A stretch of 62,192 nt of DNA, the filler included, from an uncultured virus (IMG/VR IMGVR_UViG_2049941000_000870) (taxonomy: Duplodnaviria > Heunggongvirae > Uroviricota > Caudoviricetes). It is 18 parts of one record of this genome, joined end to end, with 100 filler letters (N's around TTAATTAATTAA, not from the genome) between each part and the next. Parts side by side here need not be neighbours in the genome. Positions count along the whole stretch, not along the records: positions 31,764 to 33,506 come from IMGVR_UViG_2049941000_000870; 17 more parts are not named here. One strand, 5' to 3'. The first letter of the stretch is position 1. The number at the start of each line of letters is the position of its first letter. Under the pieces are notes generated by a model. It was given only the letters and a program-made list of their open reading frames with translations. It had not been told where the DNA came from and searched no databases. The position numbers and the translations under genes are program-made. Of this stretch, positions 15,457-41,100 are shown piece by piece.

Positions 15457-16406
15457 CATTGCCTTGCCCTCCAGAAAAAGTACTACGGAATGTATGGCAA
15501 GTATATAGGCGGAAACAGGATGAAGACACACTTCGCCAAGAGGTACAAGATGCAGAACCTCCATTCGCAAAGTGTGCAGGAGGTTATAGAACGTCTCGAC
15601 TCAGCATACCAGAGGTTCTTCGCCCGCAAGTCCAAGAGACCCCCGAAATTCAAGAGGTTCTCGGACATGTCGTCAGTCGTGTTCAAGCAAGGAGGCTTCA
15701 AACTGAATGGCAACAAGCTGACAATAAACAAGTTAAAAACAACGTTCAAGTTCTCACTGAGCCGTCCGCTCAAAGGGGACGTGAAGCGGCTGTCGGTGAA
15801 GCGCTCGCCGCTGGGCGACTACTACATCTGCGTCGTCACCGACGCCGAGGCCAAACGATACGGAAAGACACACGATGGTGCATCCGTTGGCATCGACTTC
15901 GGCCTGAAAACCTATCTCACACTCTCCGACGGGCAGGCGGTCGAGAACCCGCAGTTCCTTAAACGGAACCTCACATCATTGAGAAAGGCATCCAGAAAGC
16001 TGAGCAACGCAAAGCGTGGCTCGAACAACAGAATACGGAAACGCATGGACCTTGACAGATGCCATGAAAAGGTTGTGAATTCACGAACCGACTGGCAGTG
16101 GAAACTCGCCCATGCGATATGCCGCTCATATGACAACATATTCGTCGAGGACCTTGTCCTGACTGGAATGTCGAGACGCTGGGGCAGGGAGATGGGCGAC
16201 CTGGCGCACGGAAGGTTCGTGGAAATCCTCGGAATGGTTGCATCGAAATACGGATGCAACCTGCACAAGGTTGACAGGTTCTACCCGTCAAGCAAAACCT
16301 GCGAGTGCGGGTTTGTCAATGAGAACCTGTCGCTGAAGGACAGGGAGTGGGTCTGCCCGCATTGCGGAAGGACAAACGACAGGGACTTGAATGCTGCAAG
16401 AAATAT
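15457..16406 (+). CDS. tnpB: RNA-guided endonuclease TnpB (IS200/IS605), partial
   Basis: RuvC motifs GIDFG, VEDL, DRDLNAA; Zn finger CECG...CPHC. Confidence 0.92.
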
Positions 16407-24883: not shown

Positions 24884-24991
24884 GTGCCAGATAAAAACAG
24901 CCTTCAGCCCAAGAAAACTTTTAAAGAGGCAGCTGTTCTGTGGATTGCCTATGGGAATTGTGCTGTGCTTTTCTTGGTTCAGTCTGGCTAC
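24884..24991 (-). ncRNA. Conserved pseudoknot motif, copy 1
   Basis: Shared with the interior of 32920-33114, with a compensatory base-pair change. Confidence 0.7.
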
Positions 24992-25646: not shown

Positions 25647-26335
25647 GCTGATTCCTGCCACACTATGTTACCATAGCCAAACAAGTGGAACCGACTTGTG
25701 AAATGCCCCTCAATTCATGAGACACCTCCTTGGGAGTCGAACCCAAGAGCTAAATGTTTGTTGTGGTCTGGACTGTCTCTTTGCCATATTGAAATTCTTG
25801 CAAGGCAAAACTTACTTATATAACCCTTTCTTTATTTTTCCGTTCTTGTCCTACGGCTTAAGCTATTCACCATAGGGGAGCGCAGTACTATTTCAACTGA
25901 AATACTTAGATTAATTTCATAAGTTTTAAATTTCAACTTAGACACCACCCGTTCAGTCTCTACACGATTATGAGTGTTATCCATACCAAACTTCTCTTTC
26001 AAAGATGTAGAGGAAGTAACTACTCAATTTCGCTCGGCATAGTCCTACACATTATTGGTTAGTGTTTCACTTGATGTGCCAGGGTGATATTTACCCACCT
26101 CCCATGGTTGGCGAAGGCGTCTGTGTGAATACAGATTAGCCCGCTTTCTAAACACACCAACTAAGGATTTCCACCGAATTTAGGCGGAGGATTGGGAACA
26201 GCACGGGAAATTAAGATACTCCGCGATTTGTATCACCCTGTTGCTTTTATTACCAATCCACCACTATGGGGTTTCCCGCCATAGCGCACAATTTTACTAT
26301 GAGTCAGCCGCTCTAACCATCTGAGCTAAGGGACC
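25647..26335 (-). tRNA. tRNA-Ile(CAT, lysidine-type) interrupted by a group I intron; 3' end lost in gap
   Basis: 5' exon 26335-26299 GGTCCCT...GCTGA-CT-CAT; 3' exon AA-TCAGC 25653-25647. Confidence 0.85.
25654..26298 (-). ncRNA. Group I intron (IC3-like), 645 nt, position 36/37
   Basis: P1 CAU/GUG with U.G; P 26161-26184, Q 26026-26045, R 25948-25969, S 25770-25782; terminal G. Confidence 0.9.
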
Positions 26336-26530: not shown

Positions 26531-26691
26531 CTTGCCACACTATGTTACCATAGCCAAACAAAAGCAGAGGGATTTAACTTATACTGCTCAACTTCCTTTT
26601 AATTTAATTTTCTTTGTTTGTTGTGGTCTGGACTGTCTCTTTACCATATTGAAATTCTTGCAAGATATAGTTTTCACCGAACGGATTCCTT
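26531..26691 (-). ncRNA. Group I intron 3' part (P8', S, P9, omegaG)
   Basis: Near-identical S and P9 blocks to intron 25654-26298. Confidence 0.85.
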
Positions 26692-27197: not shown

Positions 27198-27474
27198 TTA
27201 GAAACTTTACATTTGTGTTGTTATTTTTATTCTTTCCACAGAAATTGTCTGTTTGAGTATGGCAATTCGGGCATAAAATTTGTAAATTTTCAATTCTGTT
27301 GTCGTTATGGTTTCCGTTAATATGATGTAATTGCAACTTAAGCGGGTTGCCATTCCACTCACTAATGCCGCATACTTCACATTTATATTCCTTTAATTTA
27401 CTATAAAGTAAACGTTTAATTGTGTTATGGTTGGCTCTATGTGTTTCATTTGCAAAATACTCTTCGTCAGACAA
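27198..27474 (-). CDS. HNH endonuclease, partial
   Basis: CEVCG...LQLHHINGNHNDNRIENLQILCPNCH. Confidence 0.85.
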
Positions 27475-31763: not shown

Positions 31764-31887
31764 TCGCGTTTGACAGCGCCCTGCACGGGCCGCACCACTC
31801 CGCGCCGAACTTGACGCAGTTCACCGTGTCTGAAGAGGACACGAACTCGTTGAATTCCGTTTCTGTGGAAAGTTTCCTGATTTCCAT
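31764..31887 (-). CDS. Thioredoxin, partial
   Basis: FGAEWCGPC. Confidence 0.85.
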
Positions 31888-31921
31888 TTGCACTTGTTTT
31901 TTTTTGTTGTTGATAAACAGT

Positions 31922-32119
31922 CTACTCAAAAAGCGCCCTGTATGGCTTGATTTTCTCCGTCGCCGACTCCATGAGCAGCCTGACCGCGTAGGAAGTCGTG
32001 CCCAGCATCTCGGCAATCTCCCTGTTCGACAGCTCGTCAGTCCCCCCGAAGCCGTATTTCATGGCCAGCACGGCGGCCTCGTCGTCCGTCAGCTCCTCGG
32101 ATATCACCCTGTGCAGCGC
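31922..32119 (-). CDS. Sigma70 region 4 fragment (C-terminus of 33906-34628)
   Basis: LTDDEAAVLAMKYG...SNREIAEMLG. Confidence 0.7.
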   Translation of the reverse strand, partial: ALHRVISEELTDDEAAVLAMKYGFGGTDELSNREIAEMLGTTSYAVRLLMESATEKIKPYRALFE

Positions 32120-32129
32120 NNNNNNNNNN

Positions 32130-32387
32130 CGTCCTTATTTAATACAGACGCTATCTGCTTTATTTGGGGATTTCATTTAGGTCTTAAAAACTTATTTTCG
32201 CTCGGTGTAGTCCTTATGCATTATTGTTTAGCATTATCTAGGAAAATAAGTAATTGGGCGGCTATGTTCTTCTCTCCTTTTAAAGAGCCGTTCTTTTCTT
32301 TCCCAATTACTAAGGATTTCCACCGAATTTAGGGGATTCTGCACAGGGATTTCTCGCCCGTGCATTTTCATGTGCCAGTCACTTCCC
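32130..32387 (-). ncRNA. Group I intron-like 5' half (P2, P3, P, Q) with non-tRNA 5' flank
   Basis: 24-nt identity with the P block of intron 1; Q at 32195-32213; P2 with bulged C and GAAA loop. Confidence 0.8.
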
Positions 32388-32421
32388 GTTTTTCAATCTT
32401 TCAAAGAACATTTTTTTTTCA

Positions 32422-32493
32422 GTGTGACGATGGGACTCGAACCCATATCCCCGCACAATGTGCAGTGTGCTTAACCATTTACACTACGCCACT
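32422..32493 (-). tRNA. tRNA-like gene with 5-nt anticodon loop (possible pseudo-tRNA)
   Basis: Normal D and T arms; CTGCA-CATTG-TGCGG; A1.A72 mismatch. Confidence 0.65.
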
Positions 32494-32578
32494 GAAGCCC
32501 TCTGGTGTGCAACCCAGACATCTGGCCGCGGCTTGCACGCCTCGGCGGACGGTTCGGGCTTTTGAGATAAACCTACAC

Positions 32579-32888
32579 TATTTTATTATTGATAGTTTTT
32601 TTTTCTTATTTAATCTACCATAGTTTTCTGTCATTGCATGGTGATTCGGACATAATACTTGTAAATTATTAATATCATTATTAAAACAATCACCGTCAAT
32701 ATGGTGAATCTGCAATATGTCGTAGTGTGTATATGGGTTGGTTTCGTTGAACCCACAAATATCACACTTATGGTCATGTAAATCTAGTAGATACTTTCTG
32801 ACATATCCACTAATCTGGCCAAATTTATCACACCCACAAATTTCACCTTTCAGCCATTTTTGAACATTTGTTTTATATTCAAAGTCTT
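32579..32888 (-). CDS. HNH endonuclease, 5'-truncated (absent from ORF track)
   Basis: Manual translation: KCDICG...LQIHHIDGDCFNNDINNLQVLCPNHH. Confidence 0.8.
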
Positions 32889-32919
32889 NNNNNNNNNNGA
32901 GGGGATACGCCCCAGTTTT

Positions 32920-33114
32920 GTGAAGAACCGAGGATTCGAACCTCGGAGTGTCGTGTGTTCCGCAACAACAGCCTTCAGCACAAGAAAACTTTTAAAGAGG
33001 CAGCTGTTCTGTTTTTCATATGAACCGACGGACCAATTTCAGCTTAAAATCCGTTGACTATGCTTTTCTTGTTTCAGTCGGAACAATGCGACACACCATA
33101 CTTTCTTTTCTTCA
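32920..33114 (-). ncRNA. tRNA-like RNA (acceptor stem plus T-arm) enclosing the pseudoknot motif, copy 2
   Basis: TGAAGAA/TTCTTCA, CCGAGG-TTCGAAT-CCTCGG, GTGTCG/CGACAC, TGTTCCG/CGGAACA. Confidence 0.7.
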
Positions 33115-33119
33115 ACCAG

Positions 33120-33192
33120 AGCGGGAGAGGGGATTCGAACCCCCGACCTTCTGCATGGCAAGCAGACGCTCTGCCAACTGAGCTACTCCCGC
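33120..33192 (-). tRNA. tRNA-Gly(GCC)
   Basis: Loop TT-GCC-AT, T73. Confidence 0.95.
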
Positions 33193-33196
33193 GACT

Positions 33197-33506
33197 GAAA
33201 GCGACCGACCGCACGACAAAGCCACACTATGTTACCATAGCCAACTTATCCTCTGTAACTGCTATTTAGTTTGTATTACTCGACCCTTTCTTTTCTTTCA
33301 TACAACATCAAGTTACATATTTCCGAGTAAATTGTTGTGGTCTGGACTGTCTCTTTGCCATATTGGAACTCTTGCAAGATGGTTTNNNNNNNNNNTTCAT
33401 ACCTACAACTTCCTACACCCGAGTAGTCCTCTGAATCTTGATGGTAATATATTCTCAAACCAATTCCGACTTAGGCATCTCCCGTTCAGTCTCTACACGA
33501 TTATAA
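33197..33506 (-). ncRNA. Group I intron-like 3' half (R, P8, S, P9) with non-tRNA 3' flank
   Basis: R 33481-33503, S 33344-33356, P9 33221-33244; candidate omegaG at 33217. Confidence 0.8.
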
Positions 33507-36989: not shown

Positions 36990-38025
36990 CTGGCTTTGCG
37001 TGCCCTGGCCGTACATTTTGGCGGAAATGCCGTACATGCGCTCCTGCACTTCCTTCTCAAGGGCGTCCAGCCCGCTGTAGTCCTTCTTCGACTTCATGTC
37101 CTCGACGTCATTCTTCTTCCCTTCGAAAAACGCCTTGTCTTCGTCCGTGAGCGTGCCTTCCTTTTCGGAGGCGGTCTCAAGGAATTTGTCTATGGAGAAC
37201 GACAGGCCCTCGGCCCTGTTCGCCTTCGCGAGCTCCTCCTCGGCCTTCCTGTCCTCCTCGGCGTGCTCCTCGGCCTCGGCCTTCATCCTTTCGATGTCCT
37301 CGTCCGATATGCTTGTCTTGGACTCTATGGTGACGTGCTGCTCCTTGCCAGTGGCCTTGTCCCTGGCTGTCACCGACAGTATGCCGCTCGCGTCTATGTC
37401 GAACGTGACCTCAATCTGCGGGACGCCCCTCCTGGCTGGCAGTATCCCGTCCAGGTTGAACACGCCGATTGTCTTGTTGTCTTTGGCCAGTGGCCTGCAG
37501 CCCTGCAGCACCCTTATGGTCACCGCGGTCTGGTTGTCCACGGCCGTCGTGAAGGTCTCGGTGCGCCTGGTCGGTATTGTGGTGTTGGCCTCAATCATCT
37601 TGGTCATCACCTCGCCCATGGTCTCGATTCCGAGGTTCAGCGGGGTGACGTCGAGCAGCAGCATGGCGTTCTCGGCACCCTCGCCGCCGACGCTCACGTT
37701 GGCCTGTATCGCGGCCCCGAGCGCCACCGCCTCGTCTGGGTTCACGCTCTTGTTCAGTTCGGTCCTGAACTCGTTCTTAAGAGCCTCCTGGATTGCCAGC
37801 GACCTTGACTGTCCTCCGACAAGCAGTATGTATGACAGTTTGTCATATGACAAATCGGCAGCCTTCATAGCCTCCACGCCGCATGCGACGATTCTCTTCA
37901 CAATACCCTCGCACATGGAGTCCATCTTGGCCCTGGTCAGCGACTTGACGAAATGCACTGGCACGCCGTCGGACACCGTGATGTACGGCAGGTTGACCTC
38001 TGTGGTGGTGGCTGTCGACAGCTCG
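36990..38025 (-). CDS. dnaK: DnaK C-terminal half
   Basis: VNPDEAVALGAAIQA, LLLDVTPL, GVPQIEVTFDID. Confidence 0.95.
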
Positions 38026-40363: not shown

Positions 40364-41100
40364 CGCTGCATGGCCATGGGGTCCTTGGATAGGTCGACTC
40401 CGTTGTCAGCCTTGCACTCGTCGACAATCCACTGGGATATCGCGTTGTCGAAGTCCGCGCCTCCGAGGAACACGTCGCCCTTCGAAGCCTTGATTTCGAC
40501 GACACCGTCCGCAATCTCGCACACCGAGAAGTCGGTCGTGCCCTGGCCGATGTCGGCCACCATGATTACCGCGTCCGTGTTGACGTCGATGTTCGAGGCC
40601 ATAATCGCCGCGGTCGGCTCGTTTATCACCCTGTGGACCGTGAGTCCAGCGATTGTGCCAGCGTTCTTCGTGGCCTGCCTTGCCGCGTCGTCGAACCACG
40701 CTGGGCATGTGATTACGGCGTCGGTGACCTCGGTTCCGATATAATCCTCGGCGGTCTTCTTCATCTTCGCGAGCACCATGGCGGAAATCTCCTCTGGGGA
40801 ATAGTCCCTGCCTTCGATGTTCACGCGCGGATTTCCGTTGGCGTCTGGATGGATGTCGTATGTCATCTTGTCGAGTATGCCCTGCTTCTCGGCCTGGTCG
40901 TAGGTTACGCCCATGAGCCTCTTGATGTTGTACACCGTGTTCTTCACGTTCATGACCCTCTGGCGCTTGGCCGACTCGCCGACCTTTCGCTCGCCGTCCT
41001 TGAACGACACGATTGAAGGCGTCGTCCTCTGGCCTTCCGAATTCACGACCACAACGGGCTTCCCGCCCTCCATTGTCGCCACGCAACTGAACCCAGTTCC
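40364..41100 (-). CDS. dnaK: DnaK N-terminal ATPase part
   Basis: NSEGQRTTPS, AVITCPAWF, INEPTAA, LGGADFD. Confidence 0.95.

Follow-up and report, generated by a model that had tools for sequence, protein, structure and literature searches.

Group I introns in the tRNA genes of bacteria have been assigned to subgroup IC3, and a survey of them recognised 21 classes, in which 17 were added to the classical Leu, Arg, fMet and Ile2 introns and one class carries C at position -1 (Williams 2020, bioRxiv 10.1101/2020.01.27.920355). For phages, a 2014 review (Hausner, Hafez and Edgell, PMC3984707) places all introns then known in protein-coding genes, and it describes the combination of a free-standing homing endonuclease with a group I intron that has no open reading frame (ORF) as 'collaborative' or trans homing. 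Our literature search turned up no publication dealing with group I introns of phage tRNA genes. Permuted intron-exon (PIE) constructs, which make circular RNA, are engineered. Here we describe a group I intron (the target intron) of an uncultured virus, IMGVR_UViG_2049941000_000870, read in a window of 62,192 bases (the whole stretch of DNA that was analysed), where its two halves are printed at 32130-33506 in permuted order around tRNA and endonuclease genes. The target intron is a defective-looking member of a known intron type and its permuted layout is not genuine.

The window is no contiguous stretch of a genome, being composed of 104 sequence pieces parted by 10-N gaps, longer runs of N and N44-TTAATTAATTAA-N44 linkers, and the target intron lies on a small scaffold of four of these pieces (p0 to p3, Table 1). 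The 3' half stands before the 5' half in the window as printed, as the initial annotation had described, but not in the DNA. Contigs were re-assembled (k=31) from four sequencing runs of one bovine-gut sample and placed on the scaffold, and in all four runs position 33506 followed position 32130 after an identical 13 letters, a joint that goes back 1377 in the printed numbering, at depths of 7.7-29. A single contig of 1469 nt ran through p1 (32888→32130) and the 13 letters into p3 and on as far as 50 nt into p2 (33506→33336), and the gap at 33386-33395 was bridged by contigs in three of the four runs with 7 extra letters, giving a real gap of 17 nt. Over 32130-32888, no base differences or indels were found in any of the four runs. 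Because the re-assembled contigs join 32130 to 33506 and bridge 33386-33395, the true order of the pieces is, with near certainty, p1, p3, p2 (32888→32130, 33506→33396, 33385→32899), which is that of a linear intron. This order agrees with the predicted pairings, since P3 pairs p1 with p3, a P8 stretch (33470-33462 with 33370-33362) pairs p3 with p2 across the gap at 33386-33395, and the last three of the 13 bridging letters extend P6, adding by our own reading a G-C, a U-A and a U.G pair. The block order of the corrected intron is also that of the intron in the tRNA(CAU) gene of the window and of every relative on viral contigs.

The permuted layout is thus an assembly artefact. A natural permuted, circularising arrangement had been proposed in the initial annotation, which had itself called the order doubtful, and it does not survive the placement of 33506 only 13 letters after 32130. 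Beyond the loose piece ends 32888 and 32899, and likewise beyond 32119, the re-assembled contigs continue into differing sequence. A true permuted intron-exon, or a circular or tandem arrangement in which both orders exist, would accord with the deposited scaffold order and with a stretch of 27 nt, somewhere in the 519 nt ahead of the HNH piece, that matches the beginning of tRNA-Gly (joint 32888→33166, with a side below 30, which is often a repeat). The match covers 27 nt only, however, with the rest of the tRNA absent, the ends 32888 and 32899 run into different letters, no contig joins 32899 to 32888 and all of the relatives are linear, and we give such an arrangement next to no credence. 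A small circle or tandem repeat was rejected on the divergence of the piece ends in the re-assembled contigs. With PIE constructs the target intron shares only the printed order of its halves; its DNA is not permuted.

The draft assembly probably split the intron at repeats common to sister introns, and the scaffolder would then have misplaced the pieces. Likely causes of the mis-scaffolding are a 34-nt stretch identical in a sister intron, a repeated 49-nt spacer element and the 27 nt, ahead of the HNH piece, that duplicate the beginning of tRNA-Gly. The spacer element occurs at 24893-24941 and 32964-33012 (95.9% identical), each time downstream of a different tRNA gene; it is hairpin-capable, breaks the assembly and had no match in the viral contigs. 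At the far end of the scaffold, the sigma-factor-like piece at 31764-32119 did not adjoin 32130 in the re-assembled contigs, and one extra T, in a homopolymer, was seen after 31896 in three of the four runs.

Once re-ordered, the intron is approximately 550 nt long (240+13+111+17+169), and its pieces (32369→32130, 33506→33396 and 33385→33217) match, block by block, the complete intron of the tRNA(CAU) gene of the window (26296→25650), a second 3' part of the same family lying at 26690→26534. They also match the introns of viral contigs, numbered here L001-L025, which were found by scanning with an exact conserved P9 motif (4 viral-contig loci) and with a degenerate P8/P7/P9 pattern (21 loci, 4 being the same places). 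Conserved blocks were 80-97% identical, all helices were common and the nearest relative of the target was L008. The initial annotation had recognised the halves as a group I core of the tRNA-intron family, and these matches bear it out. When introns were allowed, ARAGORN called a tRNA split in its anticodon loop in 15 of the 19 viral loci that could be extracted (Met/Ile-CAU, Leu-UAA, Arg-UCU, Tyr-GUA and Thr-CGU). The other four were a locus in a non-tRNA context (L014), a truncated tRNA behind an HNH gene (L017), a tRNA that ARAGORN missed (L010) and a locus cut by the contig end (L013).

This is a family of introns of approximately 450-650 nt, residing in phage-encoded tRNA genes with at least five anticodons (CAU, UAA, UCU, GUA and CGU), in which the guide is re-tuned for each exon. 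Some of its members are unusual in their own right. The intron of L014 lies in an apparently protein-coding context, and that of L017 in a tRNA which has neither D arm nor the 5' strand of the anticodon stem, with an HNH gene and a duplicated T-arm fragment directly in front of it. The tRNA-Thr(CGU) introns of L008, L016 and L025 pair CUC with GAG, having C in place of U at -1, and L016 and L025 have two P7 mismatches each. T-arm-like hairpins (a stem with a TTCGAnT-type loop) were seen in peripheral loops at 25729-25747 on the minus strand of the window (P9 of the tRNA(CAU) intron), in L007 (P6) and in L014 (P9).

Covariation was assessed in an alignment of 18 distinct relatives, on which P2, P3, P4, P5, P5a, P6, P7 (pseudoknotted with P3), P8 and P9 were imposed. 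Standard pairs occupied 96.5% of cells, compared to at most 45.5% in slid controls, and 29 of the 75 pairs changed on both sides, three of these double-change pairs being in P7; none of 500 shuffles reached any of the observed measures. In the relatives the guide covaries with the end of the exon (GUG:CAU, GAG:CUU, GCA:UGU, GGA:UCU and GGU:ACU), the last exon nucleotide is U (C in the Thr type) and a terminal G precedes the 3' exon. As judged by comparison of the aligned introns, the covarying core, the guide/exon covariation and the terminal G constitute the group I signature for the family, and the target is predicted, with high confidence, to belong to this IC3-like family of tRNA introns.

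In the target, 67 of the 70 well-supported pairs form and three are broken (0-3 in the relatives), and it differs at three of the 117 invariant columns (0-9 in the relatives), with two invariant pairs turned to C.A. P3 forms between UCCCCU (32336-32331) and GGGAGA (33483-33478) with one C.A mismatch, confirming the single mismatch expected at the outset. All five P7 pairs are standard, including a G-C pair that all 18 relatives share without change, in agreement with the intact G-binding site noted earlier; which of the P7 pairs would bind G is assigned by analogy. G-C pairs peculiar to the target, each matched on both strands, occur in P5a and P8. By these measures the catalytic core from P2 to P9, including the P3/P7 pseudoknot, is intact.

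The likeness to bacterial IC3 tRNA introns extends to this P2-P9 core with its P3/P7 pseudoknot and, in the relatives, to a guide abutting P2 that forms a 3-bp P1, to insertion in the anticodon loop, to U (or C) at -1 and to the terminal G. The core motifs of the family presumably also recall those of the Azoarcus pre-tRNA-Ile(CAU) intron, which serves as structural reference for such introns. The target differs from IC3 tRNA introns in its non-tRNA site, absent guide triplet, deviant 3' tail and large peripheral insertions (approximately 550 nt), and in escaping the Rfam model RF00028. A search with this model, which the initial annotation had proposed, returned no match on the region (gathering score, E<=10) or on the whole window (E<=1), and none on L001-L004 or three whole viral records, whereas control genomes did match; the only Rfam matches at the target region were tRNAs. 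RF00028 misses the family because the Rfam seeds are all non-bacterial (Williams preprint, bioRxiv 10.1101/2020.01.27.920355). No matches to two conserved family patterns were found in representative genomes of 185,579 species.

From the family of L001-L025 the target is set apart by its exon context and by both of its ends, odd contexts being found also in L014 and L017. A G-N-N triplet stands directly before P2 in 19 of 20 rows of relatives, with a shifted GAAG in the 20th, and in the target the corresponding letters are AAA; compared to its nearest relative (the L008 type), its 5' end differs by exactly the absent triplet. The only P1 pairings that can be drawn in the target are out of register or compete with P2, and the missing canonical U.G P1 that had been reported holds, in that none exists in the family register. 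The Leu.3Cg class, with C at -1 (Williams 2020), resembles the non-canonical P1 of L008, L016 and L025, but these three keep their guide and the target has none in register. At the 3' end the tail of the target reads CUUUG against the family consensus Y-A-R-G, the invariant A having become U, with a G present at 33217.

The flanks of the target, 32386-32372 and 33214-33197, are complementary as had been noticed, pairing at -21.8 kcal/mol; pairing at least this strong was seen in 24 of 2000 shuffles and 11 of 3369 genomic 30-mers. When joined they fold as one hairpin (-20.1 kcal/mol), and their local alignment to the anticodon arm of the neighbouring pseudo-tRNA scored 31, which 23 of 2000 shuffles reached and which we treat as a hint only. 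Splicing could on this basis take place at ...GCACAU|UCGUGC... through a CAU/AUG pairing, with U-A at the cleavage site, to yield an RNA hairpin of 15 bp with a 4-nt loop. CAU is also the exon end in the tRNA(CAU) members of the family, and both the single hairpin and the likeness to the anticodon arm would suit such an exon. The pairing competes with P2, however, because the U and G of AUG form the first two pairs of P2, which in the target has 10 pairs and is stronger than in the relatives (G-C for G.U). Furthermore, homology with L003 and L008 puts the start of the intron two nucleotides earlier, and the cleavage site would be without a wobble; in the Tetrahymena intron, Watson-Crick C-G in place of U.G is inactivating (Williams, bioRxiv 10.1101/2020.01.27.920355). 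We consider a hairpin exon of this kind unlikely.

No split tRNA was called around the re-ordered target by ARAGORN with introns of up to 900 nt, also at a lowered threshold, the only calls being the pseudo-tRNA and tRNA-Gly; identical settings at the default threshold gave the split-tRNA calls in 15 of the 19 family loci. This upholds the earlier view that neither flank is a tRNA exon, and on sequence grounds the target intron is very probably not inside a tRNA. Two ways of rescuing a tRNA context were tried and set aside. For flanks that represent a tRNA without D and T arms, the sole support is the weak likeness to the pseudo-tRNA anticodon arm, which we leave as a hint. An intron whose P1 loop contains the HNH gene and the pseudo-tRNA, and whose 5' exon is an upstream tRNA, was rejected because a tRNA 3' half is absent from the 3' flank and ARAGORN called no split tRNA.

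Table 1. Positions in the window of the target intron, its flanks, its neighbours and the scaffold pieces that carry them.
Feature	Position	Strand	Remarks
Small scaffold with the intron	31764-33506		four pieces, p0-p3
p3	33506→33396	minus	111 nt
p2	33385→32899	minus	487 nt
p1	32888→32130	minus	759 nt
p0	32119→31764	minus	
10-N scaffold gap	32889-32898		flanking sequences are not true neighbours; re-assembled continuations differ
HNH homing-endonuclease gene, free-standing, 3' part	32579..32888	minus	5' end open, entering the 10-N gap; upstream of the intron when re-ordered
HNH ORF extent	32579-32886		PHROGs phrog_10822 HNH endonuclease, E 6.4e-14; Pfam HNH_3, E 0.0011, below cut-off
Pseudo-tRNA, called Asn 'ATT', with shortened anticodon loop	32422..32493	minus	RF00005, 38.9 bits; ARAGORN
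U-rich spacer stretch ending UUU	32403..32410	minus	putative alternative 5' splice site (UUU + GAA 32369-32367)
Flank helix, 5' strand GGAAGUGACUGGCAC, then AU (32371-32370)	32372..32386	minus	duplex with 33214-33197
Intron segment 1	32130..32369	minus	short A-rich leader without guide triplet, then P2 to P6 5' strand; from family alignment and pair counts
Segment 1 helices	P2 32364-32340; P3 5' 32336-32331; P4 5' 32327-32321		
Segment 1 helices, continued	P5 and extension 32316-32211; P4 3' 32207-32201; P6 5' strand from 32194		
Intron segment 2	33396..33506	minus	end of P6 3' strand; P7 5' 33491-33487; P3 3' 33483-33478; P8 5' strands 33477-33462
Intron segment 3	33217..33385	minus	P8 3' strands 33370-33356; P7 3' 33349-33345; P9 33340-33222
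Deviant tail CUUUG in segment 3	33221-33217	minus	candidate terminal G at 33217
Flank helix, 3' strand GUGCGGUCGGUCGCUUUC, UC (33216-33215) just before	33197..33214	minus	
tRNA-Gly(GCC)	33119..33192	minus	begins 4 nt past the flank helix; RF00005, 72.1 bits; ARAGORN
Weak tRNA-like hairpin	~32923-32975		

The corrected order of the DNA is HNH gene, pseudo-tRNA, a spacer of 50 nt, the intron enclosed between the two strands of the flank helix (5' strand first) and tRNA-Gly(GCC), so that the neighbours named by the initial annotation (tRNA-Gly, tRNA-like RNA, HNH gene and pseudo-tRNA) are all present (Table 1). Our favoured reading, which we hold to be probable, is that a mobile phage tRNA intron left the target as a stranded copy, beside a free-standing HNH gene and in a spacer hairpin that is not a tRNA. 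The sequence gives even chances that its splicing is crippled, being poor or absent. We infer that a mobile copy may have moved in with the neighbouring free-standing HNH endonuclease, or may have reverse-spliced into an exposed CAU, the landing site being perhaps a dispensable spacer or a degenerate tRNA-like hairpin within the tRNA array. Since nothing at such a spacer site would select for splicing, the guide could then have been lost. As promoter-like and terminator-like sites were at chance level, with none near the intron, and no such signal stood out, we propose that the intron RNA would be co-transcribed with the tRNA array, would be released by tRNA processing and would then splice poorly or not at all. 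Among RNA runs, X17-X20 contained only 0.04-0.05 of the sampled words.

The arrangement resembles trans homing, as set out in the relevant part of the 2014 review, in that a free-standing HNH gene of phage type precedes the ORF-less target intron by approximately 210 nt. This pairing recurs in L017, where a relative of the HNH gene stands upstream of the intron, making a second case of HNH gene plus intron. It differs from trans homing as described there in that HNH cleavage of the target insertion site is hypothetical here and the gene is incomplete in the window. A paralogue of the HNH ORF at 32579-32886, which is itself AT-rich, was found in an AT-rich fragment at 27241-27396 (46% identical over 56 residues).

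A number of our observations weigh against a stranded copy as described. The core is without any decay, which would fit a very recent loss of the guide and would fit equally an RNA that is still under selection; the flank helix is above chance strength and is unexplained by a pure 'dead copy' model; and a weak P1 containing U.G (UUU 32405-32403 with GAA 32369-32367) can be drawn 2 nt out of the family register. A single locus of the guide-less kind was found. As to the order of the pieces, the four runs represent a single sample, which is probably the source of the window, and the re-assembly brings an independent method but no independent data. Moreover, the step from the first 50 nt of p2 to distal p2 crosses the 34-nt stretch (33365-33332) that is identical in a sister intron. 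Because k=31 contigs are unable to phase a 34-nt repeat, it is the original contig and the complementarity of the flanks that carry the link to distal p2.

This repeat is also where the halves of two introns might have been misjoined into a chimera, since k=31 contigs end within it, joints 33244→33332 and 33241→33335 derive from sister copies and the C.A mismatch in P3 falls between pieces. Against such a misjoining, the original 487-nt contig spans the repeat, the 5' and 3' flanks pair with each other, sister introns carry tRNA exons of their own on the matching sides and the P3 partner lies on the piece that is joined by contigs to the 5' half, and we regard it as a highly improbable origin of the target intron.

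The out-of-register P1 would allow the target to be a working canonical intron with its 5' splice site 33 nt farther upstream, on the 3' side of UUU at 32403. GAA (32369-32367) and UUU would form a displaced 3-bp P1 with G32369 in the U.G wobble, the apparent 5' flank would be the end of loop L1, and the 15-bp flank pairing would be an unusually long P10 aligning the 3' splice site, to give a product of ...GUUCUUU joined to UCGUGCGG... In keeping with this, the 3' exon of relatives pairs through its first 2-4 nt with the nucleotides just 5' of the guide (P10 drawn by eye in 10 members, with 2 more doubtful), which is the position of the flank helix; L1 varies from 7 to approximately 35 nt in the relatives, the core is intact and the flank helix is of above-chance strength. 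The proposed P1, however, comprises U.G and two A-U pairs with no G-C, and lies 2 nt off P2, which the guide abuts in all 20 relatives; the supposed P10 is mismatched at both positions adjacent to the splice site (U/U and A/C), the 3' tail does not have the Y-A-R-G of the family, and no relatives or covariation lend support. Such displaced splicing seems to us rather unlikely.

The undecayed core and the strong flank helix might alternatively reflect a ribozyme repurposed to another task, whether as a stable structured RNA or for hydrolytic or branching chemistry as in GIR1, with the terminal helix replacing P1/P10 and clamping the ends. Here the intact core with both ends altered, the compensatory pairs unique to the target and the significance of the terminal helix are to be set against the occurrence at a single locus, the lack of any same-ended relative in viral, metagenome or genome collections, the possibility that the compensatory changes all predate the loss of the guide, and the two invariant pairs that are now C.A. 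We judge repurposing to be very unlikely. More generally, there is a slim prospect that the guide-less ribozyme is not dead and that the 15-bp helix replaces P1/P10, either as an extreme P10 together with the displaced 3-bp U.G P1 or as a non-splicing clamp.

Searches for the same locus elsewhere were negative. Neither viral nor metagenome contigs contained an exact match to the 5' junction, to a guide-less 5' end or to a P5 stretch specific to the target, and a scan with 18 nt of the 3' flank found a single viral contig, L026, which is GC-rich and has neither tRNA nor intron at that place; this was taken as a chance match. Among 50,697 phage records, blastn found no match for the 5' piece, and the 3' piece matched in its tRNA-Gly only, over at most 18% of the query among the 20 records listed, none of the records reaching 80%. 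Elsewhere in the window, a TnpB/IS605 OrfB-like ORF was found at 15457-16404 and two halves of an Hsp70 gene at 36990-38024 and 40366-41100. Most of the 28 large ORFs of the window had no Pfam or PHROG match, those named being Hsp70, a sigma-70 region and TnpB, and an ORF of 997 amino acids had no relative in the phage records or viral contigs.

A permuted group I intron would have been remarkable, and knowing the layout to be an artefact spares bench work on it. The target instead belongs to a sizeable family of introns in phage-encoded tRNA genes that goes undetected by RF00028. As a guide-less copy with an intact core in the spacer of a tRNA array, it offers a natural test of how much P1 ribozymes of the IC3 type need. 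If the guide-less ribozyme were active, it would be a natural group I RNA that sets its ends by a long terminal helix and not by a guide abutting P2.

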